From Bacillaceae bacterium (GTDB lineage: Bacteria > Bacillota > Bacilli > JACDOE01), in assembly GCA_017656255.1 (NCBI GenBank), contig JACDOE010000010.1, positions 36,400 through 100,399 of the forward strand: a DNA stretch of 64,000 bases, written 5' to 3'. Below are positions 3,536 to 21,105 of this stretch, piece by piece. A program made the translations under genes and the position numbers. The notes beneath the pieces were generated by a model that saw only the letters and a program-made list of their open reading frames with translations, made no database searches and was not told where the DNA came from. The first letter of the stretch is position 1. Every line of letters begins with the position of its first letter.

Positions 3536-3544
3536 TTTACTCTG

Positions 3545-3920
3545 TTATTTTCGTTCCGGATGTTTGCGGTAAAATTCATGCAGCAGCTTCATCAAGGCCC
3601 TTTTTTCAATCCGGGAGACATAGGAACGTGAAATCCCCAGCTCTCTGGCAATTTCCCGCTGCGTCTTTTCTTCTCCCGATTCAAGCCCGAACCGGCCGAT
3701 GATCACCTCCTTTTCTCTTTTATCCAGCACGTGAATGTTTTTGTAGATCTTGCTTCGTTCGATTTTGAATTCCACTTTGTCGATGACTTCGTTGGCGTCT
3801 GTTCCGAGGATATCCATCAGGCTGATTTCGTTACCTTCTTTGTCGGTGCCGATTGGATCGTGGAGGGAAACGTCTTTGCGGGTTTTTTTGAGGGAGCGCA
3901 GGTGCATGAGGATTTCATTT
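3545..3920 (-). pseudogene. sigK: Orphan sigK 3' fragment (codons ~122-245 plus stop)
   Basis: Nucleotide-identical to 8150-8526 of the intact sigK except one synonymous difference (3551 vs 8156); identity ends abruptly at 3920 where AT-rich DNA begins; lacks the sigK 5' half. Confidence 0.85.
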
Positions 3921-4024
3921 CTAAAGTCAATATTTGAGCTATAAATTTGTTATATGAATGTTTATTCTCTTTCTTTAAAAAAATCTATAATAAAAACTAT
4001 TATAAGTTTCATATACTCACTAAC

Positions 4025-4816
4025 TTATTTCACTGCCTTCCATATTGTCCATCTATCTTTTTCGACTATATTTTTTTCTATATTAATTGACTTATCTATA
4101 TATTTTATTAGTTTATCCAATTCTTTATCATCTATTTCATATAAAATGCTTCTTCCTGTTCTATTCCTTAAATCTTTAAATAATTCCTCTTTCGTTTCAT
4201 GTACCTTTCTTATTTCCCATAACTTAACTTCTATAACATCTCTGAATCCAACATATTTAAGGGATTCAATAACAGTTTGTCCATTATGACGTCGATCAAT
4301 TTCTTTTTCAATTAGTCTGGGGAAAAGTTTAAAAAAATATCCTCTAATATGAGTTTCGTCCCCTTCTAATAAGCAATCTTCAGGGGTACGGTCTTGAACA
4401 ATATAATATCCATCTTTCTTTAATAATCTATATGCTTCTTTGAAACAAGCATATAAGTCATTAATATGATGTATTAATGCTCTTTCAAGTAATAAATCAA
4501 AACAGTCGCTTTCTAAATCAGTATCAAAAGCATTTCCATACTTAAAAGATATGTTTTTATATTCCTTACAGTTTTCTTCAGCTTCTTTAAGTATAGCTTT
4601 TGAAAAATCAACACCAGTAACGGAAGGTACACCCATATCCGAAAGTGCTTTACAATATATTCCACCACCACAACCGACATCTAAAGCTTTAGAAACATTT
4701 TCGATTGGTACAAGTTTTTTAATTGCTTCTATCCATGATTTGTCTGCCTTTCGTGTTGAATAAGTCTTGCTGTTTTTCTTATTATGAAAATCTATACCCA
4801 TGGTAAATCTCCTCAT
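4025..4816 (-). CDS. Class I SAM-dependent methyltransferase
   Basis: VDVGCGGG motif I; start probably at the internal Met (MGIDF...). Confidence 0.65.
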   Translation of the reverse strand: MRRFTMGIDFHNKKNSKTYSTRKADKSWIEAIKKLVPIENVSKALDVGCGGGIYCKALSDMGVPSVTGVDFSKAILKEAEENCKEYKNISFKYGNAFDTDLESDCFDLLLERALIHHINDLYACFKEAYRLLKKDGYYIVQDRTPEDCLLEGDETHIRGYFFKLFPRLIEKEIDRRHNGQTVIESLKYVGFRDVIEVKLWEIRKVHETKEELFKDLRNRTGRSILYEIDDKELDKLIKYIDKSINIEKNIVEKDRWTIWKAVK

Positions 4817-4926
4817 TCTATTGATTAAACTTTTATAGGGTAAATTTATATGAATGTTTATAATTTACCTCTTTAATTTTAAAACATACCACTAATGTTG
4901 CATAAATAGTTACAGAAAATCCAGAT

Positions 4927-5460
4927 TTATATGTTTGCGTGGAAATGGGCTAAAAAGCCAAATGCTAAAGTAAAATGTCCATTTAGAGTTGCAACGATAT
5001 AGATTTTCTTATGGACTACCTCGGATTTCCCATTGAATTTGGCGAACCATTTTTGAAAGGGATTTAATGTTTGTAACCAACGTTTGAAGAAGGGATTGCT
5101 TTGTTCTGTTTCCACGAGTAAACAATTTGTGATTAGGGCGGATTAAAGTCGGTTTTGAACCACCGTTTCCCATTTATACCATAAAAACCCTTTATTCAAA
5201 CATGTTGCTTAAACTATTTGAATAACTTAATTCCCCAACGAAACCAGTAGGTGTTACTAATCTGTTTAGCACTAATATCAAAGCGACTAGTAACGAATAT
5301 CTTTGCCTTGTGAGTCTACCGTTTCCACTAATTGAAATTCATTTTCGGTTCGCTTTACGTAGTTCCGATGACAAAGAGTCTAAGGAAATCGTTTTTATTT
5401 CAGATATAGCAAAGTGCTTGATTGTACAGTTCAACAACGGAATTTTTCTTGAGTCGTGAA
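4927..5460 (-). pseudogene. Possible degraded DDE transposase (IS remnant)
   Basis: Minus-strand frames give stop-interrupted peptides resembling transposase C-termini (ENEFQLVETVDSQGKDIRY, DISAKQISNTYWFRWGIKLFK); family not assigned. Confidence 0.25.
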
Positions 5461-5932
5461 GCAAAAGAAAATCCTTTAATAAGAAAAGCGATCAAAAAAC
5501 GTACATAGATTCTTTTTAGTCAATCAAAATCTCATGTTGCTAAAATTTGTTCACACGTTAAGAGTGATGATGACTTTCTCCGTAGATGGTACCGAAATCG
5601 ATAAATGCCAAACTTAAGTATAGTTTTACCCCTGCTTTTGTTTTTTGCGAAAGGATTCTCACTGGTAGTTTGTTAAATACATGTAGAATAATACTTGAAT
5701 TAATGATTTATAGATCAACTCATTTACCAAATAACTTGTCACATAGCGTTTTCCTTTCCTTTACTTTAGATTTGGATAGGGATCACCTATACTCTCCATT
5801 GTAAAGGATTTATAACACTTGCAGATCGAACATTCATTGTATTTTTAATACTCTGATTTAATTATTACAATACTAATACATAACAATCTGAATTATAAAT
5901 ATTATTCAAAGATTAACTTTGAAAGGTGCGTT

Positions 5933-7144
5933 TTATTTCATATCCAACTTACTGTTATACTTAATCGAGTCGGGAAGTGGAATATGCTCTACCTTAGGAA
6001 GAGATAAAAGACTTAGTAAACATAAACCCATAAATCCCAAGAATACATAGTGCGTATTCATAATCCCAGCCAAATACCCAGAAAGCAAGGCTGAAGAAAT
6101 CTTAGCAAATGATACCACAATTGACCGGAAACTAATCACGCGGCCCATTAACTCTTTAGGAGTGTTAATCTGAACCAGTGTCTGCATAGAAATCACATGA
6201 AATAGAATGAAGAATCCGAACCCGAACAAAGCAAAAACTGTAAACCAAACGTACCCATCAATTCCCATAAATAAGGAAAATACTACTAAACCAACTAAAG
6301 TTACCACACTAACTTTCTCTTTATATTTATATAATGCTTTTTCCACAACAAATCCACCCAATGATCCACCTAGTGTGAATGAAATGGTTATTATAGAAAA
6401 TAAAACGCTGGAACCTTTCATATCTCGTGCAACCATTGGAGCGAGTAGAGTATTTGTCATTTGATACCCTGCACTACTAATAGTAGCGAGGAAAAACAAG
6501 TATAACATTCCTCTTTTTTCATTTACAAACTTCCAACCAACTTTAATACCTTCAATAACGTCCATACTTTTACTTTGAATATTACGTCTATCTATTCGAC
6601 GAAGCAGTATAAAGAAAATTGATGATACCATAAAGGTTAATGCATTGATTGCAAAACAAATTTCTACTGATAAAATAGACATTACGATTCCTGCTATACC
6701 AGTACCAATCAATGCCATGACAAAATTAATTGAAGATGACTTAGAGATAACATAAACCATTTCTTCATCGCTGAATGATTCTCTAATTAACGTTTGAGAA
6801 GATGGCTTAAATACCAGATGACAAACTGCTAAAACAACTTGAAGAAGATAAAACATAACAATTGATATAGTATCTATAAAAATTAACAGAACAACAATAG
6901 ATACAGCTAACCCACGAATTAACTGAACAGCAACTGTTAACACTTTGGAGTCCTGATGGTCTGTAATTATTCCTACCCATGGTGCGAAAAATAAGGGAGG
7001 TAGGTAATTAATGGCGATTAATATTCCAAGGGACAGGGGACTTCCTGTAAGTTTTAAAACCAACCACATCAACGCTACCGATTGGAAACCATCTCCTAAA
7101 TTATTAATTGCTGAACCTAACAAATAAAAGAACTTATTTCGCAT
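5933..7144 (-). CDS. MFS transporter
   Basis: 403-aa ORF, about 12 predicted hydrophobic helices, N-terminal region typical of MFS efflux pumps. Confidence 0.7.
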   Translation of the reverse strand: MRNKFFYLLGSAINNLGDGFQSVALMWLVLKLTGSPLSLGILIAINYLPPLFFAPWVGIITDHQDSKVLTVAVQLIRGLAVSIVVLLIFIDTISIVMFYLLQVVLAVCHLVFKPSSQTLIRESFSDEEMVYVISKSSSINFVMALIGTGIAGIVMSILSVEICFAINALTFMVSSIFFILLRRIDRRNIQSKSMDVIEGIKVGWKFVNEKRGMLYLFFLATISSAGYQMTNTLLAPMVARDMKGSSVLFSIITISFTLGGSLGGFVVEKALYKYKEKVSVVTLVGLVVFSLFMGIDGYVWFTVFALFGFGFFILFHVISMQTLVQINTPKELMGRVISFRSIVVSFAKISSALLSGYLAGIMNTHYVFLGFMGLCLLSLLSLPKVEHIPLPDSIKYNSKLDMK

Positions 7145-7308
7145 AGTTGTGCCCTTCCATTTTTTATTTTAACTGGAAAATCATTTTATTTAGAAACATT
7201 AAATCGAGGAGGAATCGAAAAATAACATTCAAAAACACACTCTCTAAAATATATCCTTAAACTGTTGCTATTCGAATTCCTCCTCTGACATTCATGAAGT
7301 GAAGTGTT

Positions 7309-7989
7309 TTATTGTCTTCGTAATGAAAGGTTAGATAACTTAACGAAGCGTTTATATTTAAGAATAGTATCTAATACATCGCAAAGAATTAACATATTAG
7401 ACTCTTCCCCTGGAAAGTCACCCCAACTATCGTCATCGTTGCGAATGCTCATTAACCATTTGAAACCTTTTTCAATAGTGTTATGCCAAGAATAATCATC
7501 AAGGAGTTCACTCGCTAATATTAATGCTCGAATACTGTCACAAGTGTGGTCAACATTCATGTTATCGTAATGTCCTTCAGGATGTTGAGTCTTAACCAAG
7601 TATTGAACTGCTTTCTTAGAAGCTTTAACACCTTTCTTATCATATCCAAGAGTCTTTTGTAATAAGTGTGCTGTAACACAAACTGGTGTTTCATACTTTT
7701 CTTTATATTCCCATTCACCATCCTTACCCTGTCTTTCTATAATAAACTCCATAGCTTTGTTGTAAGGTTCTTCTACCATGTTTCTAATACGTTGTGGTAT
7801 ATCTGGAAGCATTCTAGCGAACATCAATGTACCGGCGCTTACACTAACAGCATCATAGAGTCCCCACTTATCATCCCACAAAGTCCCATCCTCTTTTTGT
7901 TGAGTGATTAACCAGGATAACCCATTATAAATTGCATTATCAAATCGCTCATTCCTCTGAGACAATGCATTATTAGCACGTAGAAGCAT
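7309..7989 (-). CDS. Prenyltransferase/squalene-cyclase-type (QW-like) repeat protein, possibly a fragment
   Basis: Repeated Q-x2-DG-x-W motifs (QQKEDGTLW, RQGKDGEW, NDDDSWGDFPG); only 226 aa and abutting the sigK repeat junction. Confidence 0.4.
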   Translation of the reverse strand: MLLRANNALSQRNERFDNAIYNGLSWLITQQKEDGTLWDDKWGLYDAVSVSAGTLMFARMLPDIPQRIRNMVEEPYNKAMEFIIERQGKDGEWEYKEKYETPVCVTAHLLQKTLGYDKKGVKASKKAVQYLVKTQHPEGHYDNMNVDHTCDSIRALILASELLDDYSWHNTIEKGFKWLMSIRNDDDSWGDFPGEESNMLILCDVLDTILKYKRFVKLSNLSLRRQ

Positions 7990-8149
7990 TTGTGTAGAAA
8001 ACGCAGTTTTTCTTACATGGCTTTTAATTTCCTTAGTGGTATTTCCCCAGCCACCATCCTCATGTGGGATAGAGCCCCATCTGAATTAACAGGGTCTGGG
8101 GTTTACACAGAAAAATTGACAGACCCTCCCCTTATTTTGACGTGTGCTT

Positions 8150-8887
8150 TTATTTGCGTTCCGGATGTTTGCGGTAAAATTCATGCAGCAGCTTCATCAA
8201 GGCCCTTTTTTCAATCCGGGAGACATAGGAACGTGAAATCCCCAGCTCTCTGGCAATTTCCCGCTGCGTCTTTTCTTCTCCCGATTCAAGCCCGAACCGG
8301 CCGATGATCACCTCCTTTTCTCTTTTATCCAGCACGTGAATGTTTTTGTAGATCTTGCTTCGTTCGATTTTGAATTCCACTTTGTCGATGACTTCGTTGG
8401 CGTCTGTTCCGAGGATATCCATCAGGCTGATTTCGTTACCTTCTTTGTCGGTGCCGATTGGATCGTGGAGGGAAACGTCTTTGCGGGTTTTTTTGAGGGA
8501 GCGCAGGTGCATGAGGATTTCATTTTCAATACATCTTGCTGCGTATGTGGCCAATTTGGTCCCTTTGTTTACCTTGTAACTTTCGATGGCCTTGATCAGC
8601 CCGATGGTGCCGATGGAGATCAAGTCTTCGCTGTCTTCGCCGGTGTTTTCAAATTTCTTGACGATATGCGCCACCAGGCGAAGGTTATGCTCGATCAGCA
8701 TATTCCGTGCCTCAACATCTCCCTGTTCCATCAAGCGTAAGTATTTCTCCTCGTCTTCTTCCGACAGTGGCTGGGGAAAGGCATTGTTCTTGACGTAGGA
8801 GACGAACAGAATCAGTTCTTTGTACAGAAGCGCCAGTAACCCGAGCAGTCCAGACACCCGATCCCACCTCCAGGAATAGTGCTTCAT
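8150..8887 (-). CDS. sigK: RNA polymerase sporulation sigma factor sigma-K (pro-sigma-K), intact
   Basis: 245-aa ORF with pro-sequence and conserved sigma-70 regions 2-4 ([84 protein letters not shown]), closely matching B. subtilis SigK from memory. Confidence 0.9.
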
Positions 8888-9061
8888 TTATGCCTATTCC
8901 CTTCTGGGCTTGTTTGTGTCTGTACTAAAAAAACTGTAATCAGTTTTATTTGCTTTTTTAAATTCTTTAAGTAAGTATCATATAACACCATAACAGACAG
9001 TAAAAGACAAGATCCCGGTTTGAATACCGAGATCATCACAGTAACTTAATACATCTCTAAT

Positions 9062-9562
9062 TTAATTAACCTTCTGATCATAAAACGCAATGGCCTCATC
9101 TATTAATTTTTCAAGATGTGGTTTAAGTTCAATTGCTTTTGATTTAGCTTTGTGTGTGTCATAGCCTAAATCAATTAAAAATGCATATGTACTAACCATT
9201 TCCAAAAACTGAGAACTTTCCTTGACCATAGAATTCAAAAGATCAGTATTAATTTTTAAAGAGTATCCTCCATCAGCTTCTAAAGTTTCTTTAAATGCTT
9301 TCCCCTTCTTAGTAATAGAGTACACATAAGCTTCATCGTTTTTTGATTCAGTTAGAAATCCTTGTTGTACTAAAGTATTTATCTCTTCTTGAAGTTCTGC
9401 AGAATATGGGCCATAAAAGTGGTATTCATACTTAAATGGTAAATCTAATCCGGCTGATTCAAGCAAATGCACCATCTTTTGTACCTTTTTTCGACCGTGT
9501 ACCTTTTTAATTTCATCAAACAGACTCAATAAACTGTAGGCTCCTTCGAACAATTCAATCAC
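9062..9562 (-). CDS. Panacea (DUF4065)-like protein, possible antitoxin-type partner of the HD protein
   Basis: GRKKVQKMVHLL...FYGPYS resembles the Panacea/SocA-like signature; start overlaps the HD gene stop (ATGA). Confidence 0.35.
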   Translation of the reverse strand: MIELFEGAYSLLSLFDEIKKVHGRKKVQKMVHLLESAGLDLPFKYEYHFYGPYSAELQEEINTLVQQGFLTESKNDEAYVYSITKKGKAFKETLEADGGYSLKINTDLLNSMVKESSQFLEMVSTYAFLIDLGYDTHKAKSKAIELKPHLEKLIDEAIAFYDQKVN

Positions 9563-10869
9563 CCTCCAAAAATTTCATTTTTATAATCTTCGGGCATAAA
9601 GTATCTATCTATAGAGATTTTTTTATTTCTAATTCCATTAATTATATCAGAGATCACTGATAATTCTGTACCATTTCCGTTATTATCAAATAAAATTATT
9701 TGCTCTGAAGCTTCACGTTCGCCTTCTTTTTCATCCGTTTTGGGCGTATGAAAAATATAGGGATCTTTGTATGAACTACTTTTAGCTTCGTCCATTAGAA
9801 AGTAGTACTTAATTGGAATGCCTTTTTTGTTTGAATATTCGAATACCTCCTGCCAAAACTCCATAGGACTTTTGTCTGGAATGGAAACTGACTTAAAAAA
9901 CTTTCTTCTTAATAGTCGAGTACAAAGATCGCTCAATATCGAATCTTGGTGTCTACTCCATATCGAAATAAAATACCAAATCGTATTATCTGTTAAATTA
10001 ATATAATTATGTAGTGTTTCTTTAAGGTTGCCTTTTTCTGATAAAATCCGAATCAAATCTTCAGGAAATTCAATCTCCTGTTTTTCTTGAAAAATCTCAT
10101 AAGCTCTATTAAATATTTTATCTACTAGTAGTTCAGCGCTCCGAGTTGTTTTGTGAAAATACACATTCATATACATATAGTACCTTGCCATAACAAAATC
10201 TTCGGCTATACTAATACCTTTTTCAAGATCTAACCCTACCTCAATTTGACCATTATATTCACCGATTCTCAATACATTTATCATCCATTCAAGATCGAAT
10301 GAACCGTAGCCTGCACCAGTCATTTTAGAGTCTCTTAATAAATAATCAATTCTATCTGTATCTAACTGACTTGATAACAATTTCACAAGAGCTTTGGATC
10401 TATGAGTTCGTTGAATAACATCAGCAACTTCATCTGGGTCCACATTGTACTTTTTGAGAACGCTATTGATTTCTGTATCCCCACGTATTATTTCTATTGT
10501 CCACTTTTCATGTCTAACGCCAGTTGTTTTTTCTAAAGCATGGGAAAAAGGGCCATGCCCAATATCATGTAGGAGTGCTGCAGTTAATGCTAACATTCTA
10601 TTATCAGCTAGCTCTTGAGAATATTGTTTGTATTGTTCATCCTTTAAGCTACATATCTTATTAATAAATCTTTTAGTTAAATGTGTCACACCAATAGAAT
10701 GAGCAAACCGAGTATGTTCGGCTCCTGGATATGTAAATGACGATAATCCAAGTTGTTTTATATGGCGTAGTCTTTGAAATTCTTGGGTATCTATTAATTC
10801 CAAAAGCAAAGCATCTGATTCTTTATCAAAATGAATAATATTATGTACGGGATCACGAATAGTTTTCAC
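9559..10869 (-). CDS. HD-domain dNTP triphosphohydrolase-like protein (dGTPase/SAMHD1 family)
   Basis: Motifs RFAHSIGV, LLHDIGHGPFSH, DTDRIDYLLRD characteristic of HD dNTPases; 436 aa. Confidence 0.7.
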   Translation of the reverse strand: MKTIRDPVHNIIHFDKESDALLLELIDTQEFQRLRHIKQLGLSSFTYPGAEHTRFAHSIGVTHLTKRFINKICSLKDEQYKQYSQELADNRMLALTAALLHDIGHGPFSHALEKTTGVRHEKWTIEIIRGDTEINSVLKKYNVDPDEVADVIQRTHRSKALVKLLSSQLDTDRIDYLLRDSKMTGAGYGSFDLEWMINVLRIGEYNGQIEVGLDLEKGISIAEDFVMARYYMYMNVYFHKTTRSAELLVDKIFNRAYEIFQEKQEIEFPEDLIRILSEKGNLKETLHNYINLTDNTIWYFISIWSRHQDSILSDLCTRLLRRKFFKSVSIPDKSPMEFWQEVFEYSNKKGIPIKYYFLMDEAKSSSYKDPYIFHTPKTDEKEGEREASEQIILFDNNGNGTELSVISDIINGIRNKKISIDRYFMPEDYKNEIFGG

Positions 10870-10917
10870 ATTATCACCCCATTATAAAACTCTTTAATTA
10901 TTATCTAACTCGACAAA

Positions 10918-11556
10918 CTAGAATGCATTGTGTTTTCCCATTTGTCTCAGTACTTCTAATCTATCTAAACAACTTGTACATAATAAGCAATGTCGATCCC
11001 CTAAAGCATTACAAGAAAAGGTTTTTTCTATTGGTACTGACATGTTAATTGCCTCATCAATTACAATCTGTCTGTCTAAACCCACAAATGGAGTGATCAA
11101 TTCAAATTCATGAAGTGATTCTGAAAGAGTAGTAGATATGCTCTCTATAAATGACTTACTTGTATCCTTATAAGATCTTGACCCAGTCACACCTATTGCT
11201 ATTTTTCGTATATCGTTTTTATACGCATATGCTCCAGCCAAAGATATTAAAATCATATTTCTGTTCGGAAAAAACTCGGTATTAAACCATTCTTCTGCTG
11301 AATATCCTGATTGAGGACTATCCCCCACAAGTGATCCAGAGCCAAGGTGCTTCATATTAGAAATGTCTAAAAATAAGACTTTATCCGCATACTCATTTCC
11401 TATTATTGATTTAATTGCTCTAATTTCGCCAGACACTGTTACTTGCCCATAGTTAATATGAATAGGGAATATATCGTATTTTCTTTTTCGCAACCAATAA
11501 TAAAGAACAACAGAATCAATGCCCCCTGATAATAATAATACGACTTTTTTTCTCAT
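10918..11556 (-). CDS. QueC-like PP-loop ATPase (7-cyano-7-deazaguanine synthase family)
   Basis: PP-loop SGGIDS near the N-terminus and a C-terminal Cys cluster (C-x8-C-x2-C-x2-C) as in QueC. Confidence 0.75.
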   Translation of the reverse strand: MRKKVVLLLSGGIDSVVLYYWLRKRKYDIFPIHINYGQVTVSGEIRAIKSIIGNEYADKVLFLDISNMKHLGSGSLVGDSPQSGYSAEEWFNTEFFPNRNMILISLAGAYAYKNDIRKIAIGVTGSRSYKDTSKSFIESISTTLSESLHEFELITPFVGLDRQIVIDEAINMSVPIEKTFSCNALGDRHCLLCTSCLDRLEVLRQMGKHNAF

Positions 11557-12818
11557 AATATATACAACTTCTCTATTAATTCTTCAATAGATTCAACTAT
11601 AACATTACAACCATAAACTAGCATATTATTTAATTCAAACTGTGAGGTTTTTAAAGCAATTATAGGGATACCTCTTTCATAAGCAAACCCAACTTCAAAA
11701 CATGTACCCGGATCATTATGATCTAACAATGCTACCACAACATCAGATTGTCTTATCAAGTCAAGATCTTTATCAAAAATATTTTTGCGTTCATCCATTG
11801 GTGTGTCTTTCTTTATAATTCCATTTTCTCGTAGAGGTGATAAAACTTTAAATCCACAATTTTCTATTCTATTCGTTATTAATTTAACCCAATCCTCTTC
11901 CTGTTTACTAAAAAATGGACCTGCCAAGTAAACGCTTTTGTCTGAATTACCAGATACAACAATTTCTCTTCTGTCCATATCTTCTTCTACCGCTACTCTA
12001 TTTATTATATTTTCAATTGTAAAATTCTCAATGAAGTTAGCAGCAACACAACTTGCTAACCTCGTACTATACTCAATATCCCTCGTCCTGAGAAATGTAG
12101 CAGCTAATGCACCACCAAAAACATCACCAGAGCCTAAAGTGCATTTAACATTACTTTTATACGCCGGTATATGTATAGTCTTTCCTTCGTTTACTAGAAT
12201 ACAACCTTTATATCCTCTTTTTACGATTATGTACTTAGGCCCCATATGAATTAACTTTTCAATAGCATTCTCTAAAGTATTTGCTTGAGTTAATAATAAA
12301 ACCTCTTCCTCATTTACTAAAAGTACAGATACATATTCTAAAATTTTTCTAGCATCATGAATTGATTTGCTATTTGGTTTTGGGTCAAGAAAAACAGGAA
12401 TATTTTTTTCACATGCTTGCTTACATAAATCTTCCGGAAGCGAGTGATCCACTGGAAATACTAAGATACCCTCACATTCATCACTTAGCTGTGGATTATA
12501 TTCAATACCGATTTTAACATCTATCAAAGGAGTACTTTTTTTAACTTCATAAGCTTTATAACCTTTTACTAAATATTTTGGCAGACAATAATTTTCCATA
12601 TATTTAGCACTCGAAAAACTTACACCCATTAAGTTCCATATTTTTATACTATATGAATCGATTTCGGGCCCGTATACTGTCATAAACTCAACATTGATGC
12701 CTTGTTTTGCTGCAGATATTGATGCATATAAACCGGCTCCCCCAAATCTATCGATAATCTTTGTATCATAATCTAATAATAAGTCAATACCTATCTCTCC
12801 GTATACAGCAATATTCAT
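11553..12818 (-). CDS. PfkB-family kinase fused to a nucleoside 2-deoxyribosyltransferase-like domain
   Basis: N-terminal ribokinase-like motifs (GGAGLY; TLGSGDVFGGALAA); C-terminal NDT/Rcl-like motifs (VYLAGPFF; DPGTCFEVGFA with putative catalytic Glu). Start set at the internal Met with a GAGGTG RBS; the track ORF runs to 12866. Confidence 0.6.
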   Translation of the reverse strand: MNIAVYGEIGIDLLLDYDTKIIDRFGGAGLYASISAAKQGINVEFMTVYGPEIDSYSIKIWNLMGVSFSSAKYMENYCLPKYLVKGYKAYEVKKSTPLIDVKIGIEYNPQLSDECEGILVFPVDHSLPEDLCKQACEKNIPVFLDPKPNSKSIHDARKILEYVSVLLVNEEEVLLLTQANTLENAIEKLIHMGPKYIIVKRGYKGCILVNEGKTIHIPAYKSNVKCTLGSGDVFGGALAATFLRTRDIEYSTRLASCVAANFIENFTIENIINRVAVEEDMDRREIVVSGNSDKSVYLAGPFFSKQEEDWVKLITNRIENCGFKVLSPLRENGIIKKDTPMDERKNIFDKDLDLIRQSDVVVALLDHNDPGTCFEVGFAYERGIPIIALKTSQFELNNMLVYGCNVIVESIEELIEKLYIL

Positions 12819-12823
12819 CGGTA

Positions 12824-13534
12824 TCACCTCACGAATTGAAAGTATCCGTTTCTCCCTAATATCCATAATAAATAGTCCATCTTACCTAAAGGCACTCCAA
12901 TCTTCAAGCAAATAATTCGTAATGCTTCTTCATATTGTAAGTAAACCTTTTCTGTTATGTTTTTAGGAATATTATATCCTAAGTAACCAAGAAATCTTAG
13001 TATATGGATATCCAGTACTGCACAATCATTATTAAATCCTGTATTCCTTAATAGCCAACTAGCTGATTTCATGCCAATACCTGGACATTCACATAGCCAT
13101 GTTCTAGCATCAAATGAATTAAGTTCATTAAGTTTATCAAATAATCTCCAGTGACAGTTCTCCCAAAGCCAATATCCAGCCTTGGATATAACCTTAGGCT
13201 TCGTTTCCACAAATCTATATTTTCTGAACTGGCCGTTACAAGTAATGGGATAAAACTGCTTTTTTGATAACTCTCTCTTTATTACATTTTCAATTATATA
13301 TAAGTTAGATATAGAGGAATAATATTTTGCTTCGATTAACCCTTTATTCTTTAATACATGTAAACCTGATTTGTTTAACTCATAACTGATTCCAAATCCT
13401 CCAAGAACTACGAAAAAAAATTCATCTATAACTTGTTCATTAGATTTTGAAACAAACGAAAACTCTCTTTCAATTGCAATACCATAAGTTTCCCAAAGTT
13501 CTTTTAACACATTGAATGCTCTAGTATTTTCCAT
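12824..13534 (-). CDS. Ogg-type HhH-GPD DNA glycosylase-like protein
   Basis: Helix-hairpin-helix with Lys (CPGIGMKSASWLL) followed by an Asp motif (VLDIHILR), matching the 8-oxoguanine glycosylase/AP lyase pattern. Confidence 0.6.
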   Translation of the reverse strand: MENTRAFNVLKELWETYGIAIEREFSFVSKSNEQVIDEFFFVVLGGFGISYELNKSGLHVLKNKGLIEAKYYSSISNLYIIENVIKRELSKKQFYPITCNGQFRKYRFVETKPKVISKAGYWLWENCHWRLFDKLNELNSFDARTWLCECPGIGMKSASWLLRNTGFNNDCAVLDIHILRFLGYLGYNIPKNITEKVYLQYEEALRIICLKIGVPLGKMDYLLWILGRNGYFQFVR

Positions 13535-13540
13535 ATCACT

Positions 13541-13891
13541 TTACGCCTCTACCTCTACTGTAACCTTCGGGTCATGTTGATTCCCTTCTTTTTTTATTAC
13601 AACCCCCTTGTATTCCCACCCTTCTTCAATACATTTTAAGAGCCAACTGTATTTTGGAGGAACGACCCCTATACTAAAATTATCTTTTTCTTTTTTTACT
13701 TCCATGACCGGCAATGTATCATCATTTCTTAAGATAATAGACACTTCATCATTCACAGAAACATTTCTCCACACTGCTTTTTGATTCTCATTAACAATTA
13801 ATAAAATTGTAACTTTTTCACCGCATCTATTTACTGTTTTTCCAGTTCCTCCTCCAAAACCACCAAATGATGAAAAGCCACCACTTCCCAT
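13541..13891 (-). CDS. Small protein with glycine-rich N-terminus (unknown function)
   Basis: 116 aa; N-terminal GSGGFSSFGGFGGG; strong RBS (TAAGGAGGA); first or second gene of the block B operon. Confidence 0.4.
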   Translation of the reverse strand: MGSGGFSSFGGFGGGTGKTVNRCGEKVTILLIVNENQKAVWRNVSVNDEVSIILRNDDTLPVMEVKKEKDNFSIGVVPPKYSWLLKCIEEGWEYKGVVIKKEGNQHDPKVTVEVEA

Positions 13892-14024
13892 ATAAATCCT
13901 CCTTACTAGTTATTTTTTTTTTTGCAATCTTTATAATACTCCAAAACTATTTATATTTAAATTAAATGAAATCTCATTTTGATCACTTCTTTTGTAAATT
14001 GTCTAATGTGCTTAGAATATGTTA

Positions 14025-14450
14025 TTATTTCTCTAGACCAAATTCTCTTTTTAATTTATTAAAGTCATATTCTTTTATTTCGATTGGGATACTAAGGTTC
14101 TTAAGTTTTGACATCAAATCGCTTTTATTAACAACAGGTTTGTCCTCGTAAACAATTGCGAATATCAATTTAAAATTATTTATTGAAGCACTGTCTAAAT
14201 TTTTAGCTGTCTGATATAACGATTCAATAACATTACGAGTTAACTTACCTCGTTTATTATATTTTATCTCAAATCCATAAGTTGAATTATCAGTTTTACT
14301 AATACCATCAATTTCAATTAACTTATCAGAAGATTTAAATGCCATGTGTCTCTGAATAGGAATTTTAAATTCTTGTTCAAGTTTCCTAAACACCAAATCT
14401 TCAGCTAAAAAGTATTGCATTTTGGGATCAACAGTCACTTTGGAAGGCAT
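14025..14450 (-). CDS. Hypothetical protein, possible PD-(D/E)xK-like fold
   Basis: 141 aa; spaced D...E-x-K residues (IEIDG, FEIKY); weak RBS; in-frame open sequence upstream without an ATG suggests possible truncation. Confidence 0.3.
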   Translation of the reverse strand: MPSKVTVDPKMQYFLAEDLVFRKLEQEFKIPIQRHMAFKSSDKLIEIDGISKTDNSTYGFEIKYNKRGKLTRNVIESLYQTAKNLDSASINNFKLIFAIVYEDKPVVNKSDLMSKLKNLSIPIEIKEYDFNKLKREFGLEK

Positions 14451-15283
14451 GTCTAACGTACCCGCTTTATCCTCTTCAATATTATTATCACTAGAAGATT
14501 CTTCAAGCTCTGCTTCTGCTTTCTTTCTTTGTGAATCACTAGTTAATTTTAAGAAATTCCCTTCATCCTTAAAATCACTTGGCGCATATAATTTGGTATG
14601 ATAAAAATCACAAGTCTATAAAATGTAAATAAAACAAGTAAAGGGAAAATTACTATGAAACACACAAGGAACCATTTTTGAGAAACATTTAATTCCGAAC
14701 TAAATTGAAGTACTAATGCTGCTATTCCATAAATTAGTGATATAAATAATGCAATGATACCTAAGGGGTTCTTTGTAAAACCTGATGCACTTCTCGTGAA
14801 TTCTATTATTATCGCTCACCTTCCTTGTAAAAATTTTAAAATGATGCCAACGTTACTCATTCTTAATACCAATCCAAATCATATCCGTGGACAAAAATGG
14901 CTGGAAAATATAAAACATGTCTGAGTATCAAAAAATTAATCTTTTAATATAACATTCTTCTCTTTTTTCTCATTAACTCCTCCTAGCTTTTGTGCACACC
15001 AATATATTAAAAAACAATCTTCAAAACTATACTTACTCCTTTTAGATCAAAGATCAAAAAATCCCTAACAAAAAAATTAGTGTTTATTCTCAATTGTATT
15101 TCGGTAAAAAAACAGATAATCCCTTTTAGGACAAATAAAAAATAATTAGTAAGGATATCACTCTATACTATATACTTATCTGAATTAATAGGTTTAATTG
15201 GTTTTATAATTATCTTCTTTTAGCTATTTGAAACCCCCCCTGACCCAGCACCACACCAGCATTCTTCCGACATCGCTTCGTGT

Positions 15284-15561
15284 TCACAACCTCTTGACGA
15301 TATGCGCCACCAGGCGAAGGTTATGTTCGATCAGCATATTTCGCGCCTCAACATCTCCCTGTTCCATCAAGCGTAAGTATTTCTCCTCGTCTTCTTCCGA
15401 CAGTGGCTGGGGAAAGGCATTGTTCTTGACGTAGGAGACGAACAGAATCAGTTCTTTGTACAGAAGCGCCAGTAACCCGAGCAGTCCAGACACCCGATCC
15501 CACCTCCAGGAATAGTGCTTCATTTATGCCTATTCCCTTTTGGGCTTGTTTGTGTCTGTAC
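15284..15561 (-). pseudogene. sigK: Orphan sigK 5' fragment (36-bp leader plus codons 1-77, then VKRL-stop)
   Basis: 15292-15561 matches 8654-8925 of the intact sigK with 4 mismatches, all synonymous or in the leader; homology ends at codon 77/78. Confidence 0.85.
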
Positions 15562-15742: not shown

Positions 15743-18346
15743 TTATAACCTCGGGTCAATTTCTTTCTCTTTACTTACTTCAAATAGCATGTTAGCAACC
15801 ACCTGTTTATATTTATGATCTGACTCATTTATTTTATCTAAATGAAAGGCCAACATCTCTTTCCCAAGTTTGAATTCATTGATAGAGGTTTTTAGTTTCT
15901 TTGAAATATTTTTTTGCTTTAAAAGCTTGGCATATTTGTGTGGAAAGCGATAATCATATCCATAAACAATGGTTAAATAATCTGGATTGCGAACTTTCAT
16001 ATAAGGGGCAGTATCATCTGCCAATTTTTCAGGTTTAATCACGACACCTTCCATTTTTCTTTCTGTTGTCAAAGTCTTAAAAAAGGTTAAAGCTTTTTCA
16101 TAATAATCCTGTTCGTTTAAATCGATCAACATAAATTCATCATCAGATACAAACTTAAAAATTTCCGATGTTGATTCTGCAGGGATGATCTCTTCTCCAT
16201 TTTCCTTGACCATTTTTAAAATATTAAATGGTTTATAGTTAATCTCATCATCCTTTGCATAGAGCTCGATTTGTTCATGATATTTTTGATGGGCTTCCAC
16301 ATGTTTTTCTATTGGTTCATATGACTTTAACATAGTTTGCAACGCCTTATAAGTCTGGTAAGTGGCACCGCCAAACTTTTTAATCAAATCTTTCTTAGAC
16401 ATTGTTTGCTGATCGACTTCATAGTCACTTGATTTATATTGCTCAACAAGTTTTTGAAAGTGGGCATCAAAGCCTTGCTCCTTTAAAAAATCCAACTCTG
16501 TTTGTAAAGCTCTGTCTATAGTCCTAAATTGCTTTTCAATCAATTCCTCTCCCAAAATAGACCAGGGCAGTAATTCACCATCAAACACGATTGTTTTTAT
16601 TTTATTCTCTTTCATGTAATCCGAAAATTTATTTAACAGATTATCATATACCGGAGACAAATCCACTTTCTTAATTTTAAATCCATTTCGACTCACTGCA
16701 TAACATTGATCTAGTTCCCTTGCTAAGTAAATGTTACATCTTGACCCCATGTACTTCGGTTGCAAAACCACTTTATGGACGCCTTTTCTCTTAAAATACA
16801 ACAACCCCTGTTTTAAAGATTCCAATTCATTGCTATCCAAATCTTTGTCAGCCGGCGACATGGTACCAGAAATATAATTAATCTTATTTTTCAAGACATA
16901 ATTAAGGCGCTTTTGGTCCTGTTCATGTAAATCCTCGATGTTAACATGTTTATCTCTTTGTTTAAATAAAGTAGGTAAAGGTTCGTTCCAGTATTTACTA
17001 GTGCTTGTAATTCGCTGCTGTTTAAAAAACGGTCTCCAGGAGTCAATCACAACAGAAGAAAGAACATTTCCATTGGCAGCTCCCGTATCAATGTTAATCT
17101 TATTTTTAATTTGGACTATTTCTTTTACAGCAACATGTCCAAAAATATGATACGGATGATTTCCAACACTCTCTGACTCCAGAAAGTGCAATTGCTCCTC
17201 GTAGGGTTTTTCTCGATCAAGAACAAAGCTTCTTTGCTTTTTCAGAGACGTTTTATCTAACTTCCCTATATATTTGTTTTGACACGGAGCATGTGTCACA
17301 TAAAAGGAAGGCTTTTGTAATCCAATATACCTGTAGAATTCTTTCGAAGATTCAACGAGTCGGAAAAATTTGTGTTTTAAATCCTCATCCTTTTCAAAGA
17401 TTTCTATAGAGTCAAAGTAGTTGTCTAGTAAACTTGAATCTACTGAATTCTTATCAATTTCACCTTTCAAGTATTTGTAAACAAAATTCTCATGATTTCC
17501 TTTTACAAGCACAAAATGATCCATATTTTGTTCAATAAATTCTACCGTCTCTTTGGTAGCATTTCCTTTGTCAATCCAGTCTCCGTTAAGAATAATTTTA
17601 TATTCATCCGTTTTTTCAGTGGATAAAATACGATTATTTTCAATATTAAACCCATAGCTGATAAGCAGCTTTTTTAAATCAGCCACTTTTTCATGAACAT
17701 CTCCAACAATTATATATTTGTGTTCCTGCGGCAAAATATGACTGAGATAATGATCTAAATCCTCTATCATAATTTTATAATTTGCATTCGGTTCATTGGT
17801 ATCAGGGTTATAGAAATCCCGCTCCCTAATTTTGTGTATTCGACGAAATTTTGACTTTGAAATTTGTTTCAGAACCTCTCTTTTGAGACGAGTGACATGA
17901 TTTGAAATTAATCGTCTTGAACCACCTGAAGCATAGAAATCTTCTCTATTTTTAAAATCAAAAAGTATAGCTTCCAGGTTATATTGCTTTTCTTTAGCAA
18001 TTTCCATGATTTGCTCACGGAATTCTTCTGAAAGGCCAATTGTATCAACAATGACGAACTCGGCGTTAATTGGAAATGACGTAACGGCTTTTAGTTTCTC
18101 AAATAAAATATGAAAGGCTTGTTCGCTGCTTTCCATCATAATTCTGTCATGTTTGTCATATTCATGTCCCAAAATATCCTGCCTGATTTCATCAGAGGAA
18201 ATATATTGAACATTGGTTTTAAAGCCCCGATCCTTATCCTGAATAGAAAGTTGAGGCAACAATATTTCTTTAGCAAATGTTGATTTACCGGAATTAGTAG
18301 CACCAATTAACATAAATATGGTATGCATATTTGTTTTTAATTCCAT
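15743..18346 (-). CDS. pnkp: Polynucleotide kinase-phosphatase (Pnkp): kinase, metallophosphatase and ligase-like domains
   Basis: 867 aa; P-loop GATNSGKST; calcineurin-like GDVHEK and GNHE motifs; C-terminal domain with a KYMGSR lysine motif; size and order match bacterial Pnkp. Confidence 0.8.
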   Translation of the reverse strand: MELKTNMHTIFMLIGATNSGKSTFAKEILLPQLSIQDKDRGFKTNVQYISSDEIRQDILGHEYDKHDRIMMESSEQAFHILFEKLKAVTSFPINAEFVIVDTIGLSEEFREQIMEIAKEKQYNLEAILFDFKNREDFYASGGSRRLISNHVTRLKREVLKQISKSKFRRIHKIRERDFYNPDTNEPNANYKIMIEDLDHYLSHILPQEHKYIIVGDVHEKVADLKKLLISYGFNIENNRILSTEKTDEYKIILNGDWIDKGNATKETVEFIEQNMDHFVLVKGNHENFVYKYLKGEIDKNSVDSSLLDNYFDSIEIFEKDEDLKHKFFRLVESSKEFYRYIGLQKPSFYVTHAPCQNKYIGKLDKTSLKKQRSFVLDREKPYEEQLHFLESESVGNHPYHIFGHVAVKEIVQIKNKINIDTGAANGNVLSSVVIDSWRPFFKQQRITSTSKYWNEPLPTLFKQRDKHVNIEDLHEQDQKRLNYVLKNKINYISGTMSPADKDLDSNELESLKQGLLYFKRKGVHKVVLQPKYMGSRCNIYLARELDQCYAVSRNGFKIKKVDLSPVYDNLLNKFSDYMKENKIKTIVFDGELLPWSILGEELIEKQFRTIDRALQTELDFLKEQGFDAHFQKLVEQYKSSDYEVDQQTMSKKDLIKKFGGATYQTYKALQTMLKSYEPIEKHVEAHQKYHEQIELYAKDDEINYKPFNILKMVKENGEEIIPAESTSEIFKFVSDDEFMLIDLNEQDYYEKALTFFKTLTTERKMEGVVIKPEKLADDTAPYMKVRNPDYLTIVYGYDYRFPHKYAKLLKQKNISKKLKTSINEFKLGKEMLAFHLDKINESDHKYKQVVANMLFEVSKEKEIDPRL

Positions 18347-19618
18347 TTACTTTTCACCTCTTGCTTTAACCAAAACTCCCTGAGTGGTATAAACCCCGTC
18401 TACACAATCGCCAATACTTAAATGATGAATCTCAAAATCTCGTTCATCAAAAATCTCACTTATCCATTGTTTAAATTCATTTGTCCCCATTTCCCATTTA
18501 TGATCTTCATGCCGATATTCATCCAGGGAATAATACTTATTAAAATCATGATTTGGAGTCGTTATAATAATGGATTCAAAATGAATGTCATCAAGAATTG
18601 TTAAAATTAGTTTTTTAGCCTCATCCTTCTCCATGTGTTCAATGACTTCTGTAAGGATGACATCAACTAATTCCCCATTGTAATCTTCAATAAAATCCTC
18701 AATGGATCCATAAGTTAATATATTTTCAATACCCCTTTTTTTAATTCTTGCATCCAGCGAACGAATGATATCTTCATCAATGTCAATGGCATAATAGTAT
18801 TTGTCACCTATACTTTCGGAGAAAAGAAAGGCATAATAACCTTCCCCACATCCAACATCAACAATTGGTTTGTTGAAGGGTAATAACTTTTTTATCGCTT
18901 CTCTTCTTTGGTGAGCTGTATGTCCGTAAGAAAAGTTTATGTCATACCTTTGTGTTTCTTCCAGGCTTTCTTTAAATTTTGAAAATAATTTCCTGCTGGT
19001 AAGTATGTTTCGTGCAAACAGATACCTTATAAAAAACGGAGCATCCAGGACTTTAATTTGATTAACATACTTTTCAATCAAACTATCTGTAACATCAAGG
19101 TATTCGTTACCTATTAAAGATAAAAATAAAAACAATAGATTAGCTGTATTCAATAAATCATAAATACTTTTGTTCGTTTTGATTTTAATTGAATAGCTCT
19201 TGTGAGATTGATGAATCATTTCGATAGAGAAATCCTCAAAATGTTTGCTAAAAAAATCTATATATCTTGGTAGTGTGATATGAACCATATTCACAAATAA
19301 TTCATTTTCATATCCTTCAAGATCATTATCATACCGGTTTTTGATTGTGGAATTAAAGAATTCTGTCATTGCGTTTAATGGAAAAAGAGGTGTATTATAT
19401 CTTGAAACATTTAGATATTCAAAGCTTTCTTCTTTATGTTGCTTGTAAGATATCTCGTTGTCAGCGTCCTTAAAATATATATTGTAGGTTTGATCATCAG
19501 AATACCAGCCAAACGCAATTCCCTGTCTGACTGTACGCAACATCATGCCTGAAGCTGGATTTTTGCGTATTAAAAAAGAAAAGTGCGGATTCGTTGATTT
19601 TAACTGAACAATAGCCAT
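18347..19618 (-). CDS. hen1: Hen1-like RNA 3'-terminal ribose 2'-O-methyltransferase
   Basis: 423 aa; C-terminal class I MTase motif (VDVGCGEGYY); stop abuts the pnkp start. Confidence 0.7.
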   Translation of the reverse strand: MAIVQLKSTNPHFSFLIRKNPASGMMLRTVRQGIAFGWYSDDQTYNIYFKDADNEISYKQHKEESFEYLNVSRYNTPLFPLNAMTEFFNSTIKNRYDNDLEGYENELFVNMVHITLPRYIDFFSKHFEDFSIEMIHQSHKSYSIKIKTNKSIYDLLNTANLLFLFLSLIGNEYLDVTDSLIEKYVNQIKVLDAPFFIRYLFARNILTSRKLFSKFKESLEETQRYDINFSYGHTAHQRREAIKKLLPFNKPIVDVGCGEGYYAFLFSESIGDKYYYAIDIDEDIIRSLDARIKKRGIENILTYGSIEDFIEDYNGELVDVILTEVIEHMEKDEAKKLILTILDDIHFESIIITTPNHDFNKYYSLDEYRHEDHKWEMGTNEFKQWISEIFDERDFEIHHLSIGDCVDGVYTTQGVLVKARGEK

Positions 19619-19773: not shown

Positions 19774-21105
19774 TCATGCTTTTGAAGATATACAACACAA
19801 CATAAAGAGACCAATTATGAATCCATATAAGATTAAAATCCAGTAGCATAAACTTAACACATACTTTCTTTTGATTCGTCGTCTCATCTGAATCCAATAT
19901 TCAATTATAGAGGCTTTAAGTAATATTCGGACATAAAAAAATTGATATATCATAACTAGCAATATAATCCCCGCTGTCATTATTGTCGCAAGTAACAACT
20001 TGAACCAAAAAGAAACAGTTTGAATATCAATCATCATAATAAATAGTAATATGCTGCCCCCTGTTCCTAATGCAATCAGTAACAGCATAGATAAAGAAGC
20101 AATAATTCTTTTAGATAGGGAAATATGGTCAATATTTAACGTTTCCTCCAAAACTTCTTTGTTCTCCTCATGATTTTTTAGTTCGTCAAGATTTTCAATA
20201 CCTCTTAAATCAAAAAAGTCTCTAAACTTATCTAAAAACCACTTAGCTATATCATGTGCATCTTTTTCAAGTTCTTCAGAACGAAGAGATAATTGGATAT
20301 ACTTTTCATCTTTATCTGTCGTGTCTTCAATAACACCTTTAACTCCCTCTCCCCTTCTATCAATCTGGATATACATAAGTAATTGATCCTCTTTAATTTG
20401 AAAAATTATCTGAATTTCATCCATCTTATCCCATAGAATTTCCTTTATCGGTTTAAAATCGTATATAAACATAAAAGGTTTCTCATCACTATAGGTATAA
20501 AAAGAGTTGAAATTCATTCTCATATTATCAATAGACACATGGGATTCTGTTTTTAAATTCTTTTTATATCCTTGCCAATTTTTAAACTGATACAAAATGT
20601 AAGATAATGAAAAACCAAGTTCTTTCTGAAGAGCTTCAATTACTTTTTGTACCCATGGATGAGGGAAAACATTAATTTCGTTATATTCCTTCCAATTTGG
20701 CCACTTGTCAAGGGAGCATATCGTGTCAATCGATATATGAAAGAATCCTTTAGAAACCAAATCCTTATCTCCATTTTCTGATTCTTTTACATTGTGAACG
20801 GCAATAGGGGTATCATAGGGAACCTGAAAAGAAAAGGAAAATTCTAATTTTTCACCAATTTCAATTTTACGTTCTTTTGCAATCGTAGTTTTTAACAGTG
20901 GGACACGAGAATATATTAAGTCGTCACGGGTATCCATTTTTGTTGTAATCTGAATGACTAATTCCTTAATTATTCTTTCCTGTATTCCTCCCTGAACTAT
21001 TACTTTGCCCGATACTTGTTCACCGGGGCGGTAATAATTTTTATCCAGAATAGTCTTGATTGCTATATCTCCATGTCTTAGCCTCCAAAGCTTTTTTCTT
21101 AACAT
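19774..21105 (-). CDS. Spo0M-like (arrestin-like) protein fused to a C-terminal multi-pass membrane domain
   Basis: N-terminus DKNYYRPGEQVSGKVIVQGG resembles Spo0M; the C-terminal ~130 aa are strongly hydrophobic. Confidence 0.45.
   Translation of the reverse strand: MLRKKLWRLRHGDIAIKTILDKNYYRPGEQVSGKVIVQGGIQERIIKELVIQITTKMDTRDDLIYSRVPLLKTTIAKERKIEIGEKLEFSFSFQVPYDTPIAVHNVKESENGDKDLVSKGFFHISIDTICSLDKWPNWKEYNEINVFPHPWVQKVIEALQKELGFSLSYILYQFKNWQGYKKNLKTESHVSIDNMRMNFNSFYTYSDEKPFMFIYDFKPIKEILWDKMDEIQIIFQIKEDQLLMYIQIDRRGEGVKGVIEDTTDKDEKYIQLSLRSEELEKDAHDIAKWFLDKFRDFFDLRGIENLDELKNHEENKEVLEETLNIDHISLSKRIIASLSMLLLIALGTGGSILLFIMMIDIQTVSFWFKLLLATIMTAGIILLVMIYQFFYVRILLKASIIEYWIQMRRRIKRKYVLSLCYWILILYGFIIGLFMLCCISSKA

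Follow-up and report, generated by a model that had tools for sequence, protein, structure and literature searches.

In type IV CBASS (cyclic oligonucleotide-based anti-phage signalling system), Cap9 ligates 7-carboxy-7-deazaguanine (CDG) to Gly2 of the CD-NTase (a nucleotidyltransferase that resembles cGAS and DncV), whose N-terminus is conserved as M(G/S)G(G/S)GG (tail GGSGGSFGSGFDPR), the adduct on residue 2 being NDG (7-amido-7-deazaguanine); Cap10, which is TGT-like (tRNA-guanine transglycosylase), next takes up the attached base, whose N9 is free, a later transfer may be undone by the OGG-like Cap11, and the final target of the modification is not known (Wassarman et al. 2025, 10.1101/2025.04.06.647259). 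QatBC follows the same logic, with an MGTS tail on QatB that is essential (Gao et al. 2026, PMC13279940). A further group of QueC-like proteins (PF06508 'Cluster 4') has as its neighbour, in 89% of cases, a fusion of a PfkB kinase with a nucleoside 2-deoxyribosyltransferase (NDT), and purine salvage was suggested as its role (Libby et al. 2026, PMC13329287). Here we report an operon of seven genes, g1 to g7, at 14450..9062 on the minus strand of a DNA stretch of 64,000 nt (the window, which means the whole stretch analysed) from a Bacillaceae bacterium (assembly GCA_017656255.1, contig JACDOE010000010.1, positions 36,400 to 100,399 of the forward strand). Its core, g2-g5, is in our estimate (probability about 0.55) a third QueC-family protein-deazaguanylation system beside type IV CBASS and QatABCD, with the kinase-NDT fusion replacing the TGT-like Cap10.

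An earlier note on this DNA, made from the letters alone, had taken the seven genes for an undescribed modification or defence operon. The set is not wholly undescribed, since the pairing of QueC with PfkB-NDT is that of Cluster 4; a literature search for QueC alongside PfkB, NDT, OGG, ribokinase or HIRAN found only Libby et al. (PMC13329287), where the Gly-tailed small protein, the Ogg partner, the dGTPase link and the defence-island context are not mentioned. As the note had said, the gene set lies outside any named system: among the seven proteins PADLOC recognises only QueC and, weakly, the HD protein, and it has no model for g1-g4.

Conservation and distribution of the core

According to the open reading frame (ORF) calls, the seven genes are co-oriented and lie head to tail, with gaps from g1 to g7 of 133, 6, about 5 (or a 43-nt overlap with the longer start of g4), -4, 48 and -4 nt; the 4-nt overlaps are those of the g4 stop with the g5 start and of the g6 stop with the g7 start, and g2 and g3 are spaced by 6 nt. 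The G + C content of the operon DNA is 0.30-0.34, compared with 0.45-0.55 in the flanks. The tight, co-oriented arrangement in AT-rich DNA was thus as first described, and five of the initial labels (Ogg-type, PfkB-NDT, QueC-like with Cys cluster, HD dNTPase-like, glycine-rich small protein) hold in Pfam, NCBIfam, PADLOC and the Protein Data Bank (PDB). The idea of a single seven-gene unit stood in part: g2-g5 are widely conserved, g6 and g7 recur together only in two close relatives, and g1 is not part of the system.

The neighbourhood comparison that the note had proposed was made by searching the ORFs of 80 genomic loci and of several metagenomic, plasmid and Escherichia coli loci with profiles grown from the window proteins, and linkage was counted over 74 non-redundant full-length PfkB-NDT genes. 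A g2-like small protein is encoded just upstream of PfkB-NDT in 96% of these, a QueC-like gene lies just downstream in 89%, and an Ogg-like gene is found at a distance of at most 3 kb in 78%. The order small protein, PfkB-NDT, QueC-like is kept in 88% of the 74 loci, mostly with overlapping stop and start codons; the Ogg-like gene is found upstream, between g2 and g4 (Firmicutes) or convergent downstream. An HD phosphohydrolase is present in the locus in 26% and within 1 kb in 18%, the HD dNTPase (deoxynucleoside triphosphate triphosphohydrolase) being the commonest extra neighbour. The conserved system consists of four genes only, those for the small protein, the Ogg-like protein, the PfkB-NDT fusion and the QueC-like protein (g2-g5), and these stand alone in Bacillus sp. 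V59.32b and Desulfitobacterium; in a relative from Paenibacillus, g6 and g7 give way to a Dgt-like HD protein and a nucleotidyltransferase. The loci come from Alpha-, Beta-, Gamma- and Deltaproteobacteria, Bacteroidota, Verrucomicrobiota, Acidobacteria, Actinobacteria, Firmicutes and others.

On a Bacillus cereus megaplasmid (NZ_CP042875.1, locus L090, 5441-8296), the PfkB, NDT and QueC domains form one protein of 658 aa, which is preceded by a 118-aa small protein starting MGSTG and by a NUDIX hydrolase gene; the Ogg-like gene is replaced. The NUDIX gene in its stead suggests that a pyrophosphatase can take over as eraser.

In many proteobacterial loci, the QueC-like gene is followed by a fifth conserved one, which encodes a divergent nitroreductase-like protein of 220-250 aa (L004/L005, 11813-12499; L089, 8255-8929; L091, 12151-12825; about 20 other proteobacterial loci), which matches Pfam Nitroreductase at E values of 2e-3 to 7e-3 and is labelled 'nitroreductase family protein' or 'dehydrogenase' by the Prokaryotic Genome Annotation Pipeline (PGAP); this gene is absent from the clade of the window. 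In enterobacterial versions, a Dam-like DNA adenine methylase is paired with the Ogg-like gene.

The context of the system is accessory, mobile and rich in defence genes. It was found on 18 plasmids and in 22 of 5,426 complete E. coli genomes (0.4%), in one of which its island encodes an integrase and adjoins a prophage and a gene annotated as an anti-phage dGTPase. Among the defence-type genes nearby are Wadjet, type II CBASS, Gabija, restriction-modification, AbiV, AbiE, Schlafen-like helicases and Dpd-like genes, with Dpd-like TGT genes near the system in one Bacillus locus. Of the PADLOC families, dGTPase leads with 10 of the 130 nearest neighbours from 36 loci (best E value 1e-146), all other families occurring at most three times each, and PGAP labels the enterobacterial neighbour 'anti-phage deoxyguanosine triphosphatase'. 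Most likely, the core serves in anti-phage defence or another kind of conflict and travels on mobile islands.

The Gly-tailed protein g2

The most informative part of the operon is the 116-aa small protein g2 (13541..13891, minus strand), a likely modification substrate which had at first been treated as filler. It starts with MGSGGFSSFGG, has the Gly/Ser tail MGSGGFSSFGGFGGGTGK followed by a HIRAN-like domain, and its gene has a strong ribosome-binding site (AAGGAGG) 7 nt before the ATG. No family match for g2 was obtained in Pfam, NCBIfam or PADLOC, and a single-sequence search recovered only g2 itself; the family surfaced after the neighbours of PfkB-NDT homologues had been collected and a profile built from them. 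That profile picks up 1,537 clusters at 50% identity (of which 1,004 have E ≤ 1e-10), nearly all of them stand-alone proteins of 105-115 aa in which the profile starts at residue 1.

An M[S/G]G start is present in 180 of the 194 normal-length members examined (93%), with Ser (87%) or Gly (8%) at position 2, Gly at position 3 (95%) and Ser or Gly at positions 4-8; Gly and Ser make up 63% of the first 15 residues and 16% of the rest. Because this Gly/Ser N-terminus matches the acceptor motif M(G/S)G(G/S)GG and the GGSGGSFGSGFDPR tail of the type IV CBASS CD-NTase, and has a parallel in the MGTS motif of QatB, g2 is the likely acceptor of the modification. A more extended homology of the tail to CdnD, including the GFDP motif, was considered and rejected, as the motif is found in only 16 of 185 members and the overall similarity is barely above shuffled controls; therefore a correspondence is claimed only for the first residues.

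Beyond the tail, two Cys residues are invariant across the family, C23, where the tail ends, and C87, in the region of the second helix, and may form a disulfide or a metal site or have a catalytic function. An AlphaFold2 model from 57 sequences (pLDDT, the predicted local distance difference test, 75.5, with much of the core at 82-90) has residues 1-25 disordered and the remainder folded as β-α-β-β-β-α-β-β. The modelled fold is HIRAN-like by two search methods and agrees with the definition of the HIRAN fold; at the sequence level, g2 has no Pfam HIRAN match even at E values up to 5, and the family profile has no PDB sequence match.

The core enzymes

The 212-aa g5 (10918..11556, minus strand) is a QueC-like PP-loop ATPase with a Zn-type Cys cluster (Pfam QueC 2e-37; PADLOC QueC 1e-32) and is the proposed ligase. 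It carries SGGIDS and a C-x7-C-x2-C-x2-C cluster, and its best relative among solved structures is Cap9 (9nto_B, 1.7e-11), followed by QueC of Bacillus subtilis (3bl5, 2.8e-10). In g5, SGGxDS, YGQ and PxRN are kept, as is an Asp which aligns with the Y-x-D-C base-binding motif of Cap9 and which, by inference from the alignment, would correspond to D117 of that enzyme.

The PfkB-NDT fusion g4 (11553..12866, minus strand) has 437 aa from the longest start; the probable true start is at 12818 (421 aa), where the public annotation also begins. Both domains are recognised in the one protein (Pfam PfkB 7e-24, Nuc_deoxyrib_tr 2e-21), which also matches the NDT structures 7m5h and 6evs in the PDB, and across 29 homologues there is no change in the kinase motifs GSGD and NxxE or in the NDT motifs YLAGPFF and DxGTxxExGxA. 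Known sugar kinases are matched only by the C-terminal half of the kinase, on the ATP side. The PfkB-NDT fusions are a distinct family, comprising a Firmicutes clade (47-75% identity) and a broad clade (25-30%).

The 236-aa g3 (12824..13534, minus strand) is an Ogg2-type HhH-GPD glycosylase/lyase-like protein (Pfam Ogg-HhH 4e-21; PDB 9o00 9e-15, with the catalytic Lys and Asp aligned), and at least 90% of 59 members of its family retain these two residues. It is proposed to act as an eraser or editor that cleaves an N-glycosidic bond.

Relation to described systems

The operon is neither type IV CBASS, as it has no cyclase and no TGT, nor Qat, nor Dpd. With type IV CBASS it shares a short QueC-like enzyme whose best solved relative is Cap9, which supports the suspected relation to the accessory genes of that system, an OGG-type glycosylase, a third partner of base-exchange type and a location in defence islands; the M(G/S)G(G/S)GG tail is also present, but on a HIRAN-like protein of about 110 aa and not on a cyclase. 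In contrast to type IV CBASS, there is no CD-NTase, either among the seven proteins by Pfam, PADLOC and NCBIfam or among the called genes of the relatives, and no cyclic-nucleotide effector; the same searches of the seven proteins gave no TGT or membrane-effector family, as had been said at the outset. The TGT domain is absent, and by analogy the PfkB-NDT fusion occupies the place of Cap10, so that a deoxyribosyltransferase sits, as first suggested, where a TGT would be. An HD dNTPase is a frequent partner of the family studied here, and membership of g3 in the Cap11 family was rejected, as neither g3, which is unmatched by the Cap11 hidden Markov model, nor the other family members tested (seven in all) matched PADLOC OGG.

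The likeness to QatABCD lies in the combination of a QueC-family enzyme with a small partner of no known family and a disordered M-G-(T/S)-S tail, which is essential in QatB. However, QatC is larger (about 400 aa), bears extensions and has an active site that is remodelled, whereas g5 has 212 aa and is QueC/Cap9-like; QatB is helical, whereas g2 is beta-rich and HIRAN-like in its model; and the window has neither the QatA ATPase (PF07693) nor the QatD TatD nuclease (PF01026) and gives no PADLOC Qat matches. The seven proteins have no PADLOC Dpd match (DpdA, which is TGT-like, DpdB, DpdC). Unlike the HIRAN domains of HLTF and Rad5, g2 is a stand-alone protein with an N-terminal Gly tail, two invariant Cys and no Pfam HIRAN match. 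Binding to DNA 3' ends, a mark of HIRAN domains, would be predicted for it.

With Cluster 4 (PMC13329287) the family shares a QueC-like protein slightly shorter than QueC, SGGxDS, YGQ...E, a variant C-terminal Cys cluster and an adjoining PfkB-NDT in about 89%; the proteobacterial members found here carry the published SCH...C..C.GC.K motif, which marks them as members of the same family. In g5 itself, SGGIDS and YGQ(x)5E are present and the Cys cluster has the same spacing but reads CN...CLLCTSC (Asn for His, no Gly, no Lys). The Firmicutes clade of the window differs in having Asn for His in the Cys motif and Tyr-x-Asp-Thr in place of His-x-Asp-Gly, so g5 is probably a divergent branch of the Cluster 4 family.

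Proposed mechanism

The note had left open whether a 7-deazapurine would be placed on nucleosides, DNA or protein; a 7-deazapurine is probable, and by analogy with Cap9 the evidence points to protein as the target. Removal of the Met of g2 would expose Gly2 (Ser2 in most relatives) on the flexible Gly/Ser tail, and g5 would adenylate the CDG of the host and ligate it to the alpha-amine of g2, as Cap9 does to the CD-NTase. The tethered base, its N9 free, would then dock in the NDT domain of g4, in the place that Cap10 has in CBASS. Glycosylation and phosphorylation of N9 are proposed because the partner enzymes are a deoxyribosyltransferase and a sugar/nucleoside-type kinase: the NDT would transfer a 2'-deoxyribosyl group onto N9, and the fused PfkB kinase would phosphorylate the sugar, so that a nucleotide linked to protein results. 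The HIRAN-like body of g2, if modelled correctly, may take the complex to DNA 3' ends, and the Ogg-like g3 would cleave the glycosidic bond, thereby resetting or restraining the system. Where they are present, the HD dNTPase g6 and its winged-helix partner g7 may supply deoxynucleoside donors (dNTP to deoxynucleoside and triphosphate), deplete dNTPs, or both; coupling to nucleotide depletion, which the note had put forward, is thus only one possible role of the dNTPase.

Several points weigh against protein deazaguanylation by the core. Position 2 is Ser, not Gly, in most members of the g2 family, and past the first six residues or so the tail shares 5.7 identities with CdnD, compared with 4.5 in a composition-matched control. 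The HIRAN assignment of g2 comes from a model of moderate confidence, without sequence-level support. The Tyr-x-Asp-Cys base-binding motif is His-x-Asp-Gly in most proteobacterial members of the g5 family, and therefore something other than CDG may be ligated; the PfkB domain of g4 diverges too far in its N-terminal half for its substrate to be named, and g3 is unmatched by the PADLOC OGG (Cap11) model. The four-gene core has no obvious toxic effector, both defence and modification in the g2-g5 family are predictions from sequence, and the same QueC cluster was read as metabolic by Libby et al. (PMC13329287).

Outer genes of the operon

The first of the two genes after the core, g6 (9559..10869, minus strand), encodes an HD dNTP triphosphohydrolase of EF1143/SAMHD1 type with 436 aa, an HD and an HD_assoc_2 domain and an intact HD motif, which matches the EF1143 dNTPase of Enterococcus faecalis over its full length (PDB 2o6i, 1e-77) and then SAMHD1 (about 1e-22); dNTPases deplete dNTPs as an antiviral strategy. 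Assignment to the Dgt-type anti-phage dGTPases was rejected because the scores are partial or below cutoff (NCBIfam antiphage_dGTPase 28.5 bits against a cutoff of 400; PADLOC dGTPase 4e-8 over 90 residues), and g6 further differs from these in its operon linkage to the QueC/NDT module and its translational coupling to g7. The latter (9062..9562, minus strand) encodes a 166-aa winged-helix protein resembling the C-terminal region of DarG (PADLOC DarG 8e-11, over profile positions 166-298 of 329; NCBIfam DarG 2e-7), which also matches LmuC and PDC-M19A and, below cutoff, the winged-helix family DUF4364 (2.5e-5); it may be a regulator or adaptor of the dNTPase. Its first label, Panacea-like, was not borne out, as neither g7 nor its two orthologues match Panacea/DUF4065 (PF13274 or SocA models) at E values up to 5. 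The single-sequence AlphaFold2 model of g7 (pLDDT 45) was too poor for a fold search.

Orthologues of g6 and g7 directly follow the core in the two closest relatives, L086 (84 and 75% identity, respectively) and L088 (74 and 66%), and among the fetched loci orthologues of g7 are found only there. HD dNTPases of the other, Dgt-like subfamily recur near the core in other loci, and g6 may be a facultative partner of the core, acting as effector or as supplier of deoxynucleosides. The outermost gene, g1 (14025..14450, minus strand; 141 aa), has no assigned function and lies within the same island. The suggestion that it might be a PD-(D/E)xK protein stays a guess, as it has no match in Pfam, NCBIfam, PADLOC or PHROGs, and no homologue was found in the 91 fetched loci; by its sequence, g1 appears to be an unrelated passenger outside the conserved system.

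These observations bear on the possibility, which concerns the outer genes only, that three independent units stand side by side in a defence island: the orphan g1, g2-g5 as the QueC/NDT module, and g6-g7 as a self-sufficient dNTPase defence gene with its regulator. The lack of relatives of g1 and the loci of Bacillus sp. V59.32b and Desulfitobacterium, which hold the four-gene core only, speak for such a division, as do the fact that HD dNTPases are known as single-gene defences, the PGAP label of the enterobacterial neighbour, and the distance of the HD gene, which in many loci lies 0.5-4 kb off or on the other strand. We nevertheless consider it unlikely: two dNTPase subfamilies (EF1143-like and Dgt-like) recur beside the module in distant phyla, far above any other family, and in the clade of the window conservation is higher in g6 and g7 than in the core, and the pair sits 48-60 nt behind the QueC-like gene in three loci that otherwise differ in context.

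Alternative readings

For the core, a nucleotide-pool route to 7-deazaguanine in DNA, serving self-marking or protection, would give g5 the task of making the free base, which the NDT would swap onto a deoxynucleoside and the PfkB kinase convert into the dNMP (deoxynucleoside monophosphate), while the dNTPase lowered the competing dGTP, the Ogg-like protein removed misplaced bases and g2 served as a DNA-binding accessory. All of the enzymes indeed work on bases, nucleosides or nucleotides, a dGTPase recurs beside the system, the Dam-like methylase shares an operon with the Ogg gene in enterobacterial versions, and Dpd-like TGT genes are nearby in one Bacillus locus. Together, NDT, kinase and dNTPase also resemble the pathways by which phages remodel dNTP pools. 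What this route leaves unexplained is the tightest partner of all, a protein of about 110 aa with a near-invariant M[S/G]G[S/G]GG start that accompanies the kinase-NDT in 96% and is translationally coupled to it; moreover, a dNMP/dNDP kinase, a polymerase and a restriction partner are not conserved, and among solved structures g5 is nearer to Cap9 than to QueC. We therefore regard it as quite unlikely.

Similarly improbable, in our judgement, is a further reading in which the protein-borne nucleotide would be joined or base-swapped onto a phage DNA 3' end held by the HIRAN domain, capping that end with a covalent protein and blocking replication, while the Ogg-like eraser would protect the DNA of the host.

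Very unlikely, finally, is housekeeping-type purine or nucleoside salvage or the biosynthesis of a 7-deazapurine nucleoside metabolite, the reading given to Cluster 4 by Libby et al. (PMC13329287) on the grounds that PfkB-NDT adjoins 89% of its QueC-like genes, and with which the lack of a recognisable toxic effector in the four-gene core agrees, since it does not account for the patchy, accessory distribution (0.4% of E. coli genomes, plasmids, islands), the defence-gene-rich neighbourhoods, or conserved partners that include a DNA glycosylase and a HIRAN-like protein, the source paper making no mention of the Gly-tailed protein or the Ogg partner.

The genomic island

The operon lies in a low-GC island of 6.4 kb whose edges are 270-nt direct repeats of 99% identity from the 5' end of sigK, each with 38 nt of upstream sequence (both unstranded). 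The right-hand copy (8656..8925) is within the intact sigK (8887..8150) and the left-hand copy (15292..15561) belongs to a truncated 5' fragment of 79 codons (15523..15284); each forms a boundary of the island. A prophage structural module, which the note had named as a refuting case, was rejected: the island has no phage genes, and 50,697 phage records gave one distant match, to the NDT only.

Just past g7 there is a terminator-like hairpin with a T-run (9011..9034, minus strand; 9-bp stem with five GC pairs), a probable end of the transcription unit; the count of terminator-like sites in the region is not above that in shuffles, so the hairpin is weak evidence. The 133-nt gap between g1 and g2 contains promoter-like hexamers, neither promoter nor terminator scans being above chance, and no credible Rfam match to a riboswitch or other RNA was found upstream of the operon.

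The intact sigK sits between two low-GC islands, 3842-8146 (island A) and 8926-15291, each bounded by direct repeats of sigK segments with 99% identity. Those of island A (3542-3841 and 8147-8446) consist of 300 nt of the sigK 3' end, with a fragment ORF at 3545-3907. There is a recombinase gene in neither island, and the intact sigK keeps only 38 nt of its native upstream sequence; the arrangement is reminiscent of skin-type sigK-intervening elements, yet sigK is whole here. Island A encodes a class I methyltransferase (4025-4816), an MFS transporter (5933-7144) and a squalene-hopene-cyclase-like repeat protein of 226 aa (7309-7989). Immediately past the sigK 5' fragment, and also in low-GC DNA, lies a bacterial RNA-repair pair (15743-19618, minus strand): Pnkp (867 aa) combines kinase, phosphoesterase and ligase domains, while Hen1 (423 aa) has Hen1_N and a methyltransferase. 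Next comes a Spo0M-like gene (19774-21105). A 38-nt sequence with an internal palindrome (TGTTACAC...GTAACA) occurs at 499-536 and 26865-26902 (95% identity), the two copies lying 26 kb apart and bracketing the whole sigK island region. Just outside the low-GC region, 23514-25544 (minus strand) encodes a 676-aa NTPase of STAND/NACHT type fused to a LuxR/GerE helix-turn-helix domain.

Significance

Protein deazaguanylation was discovered only in 2025, and the next fate of the tagged protein is not known for either type IV CBASS or Qat. The g2 family offers a simpler and far more abundant setting for this question, with about 1,500 clusters including natural versions in E. coli, Citrobacter and Bacillus. 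If the core is indeed a protein-deazaguanylation system, it would add a third branch to QueC-based immunity and correct the 'purine salvage' reading in the recent literature, and the question of the target of the modification would become directly testable. The HIRAN-like body of g2, as modelled, points to DNA ends as a possible site of action, and if capping of 3' ends were to prove true, it would reveal the fate of N9 and the target of the deazaguanylated proteins in type IV CBASS and Qat. That dNTPases of two subfamilies recur beside the system hints at a new wiring of nucleotide depletion into defence.

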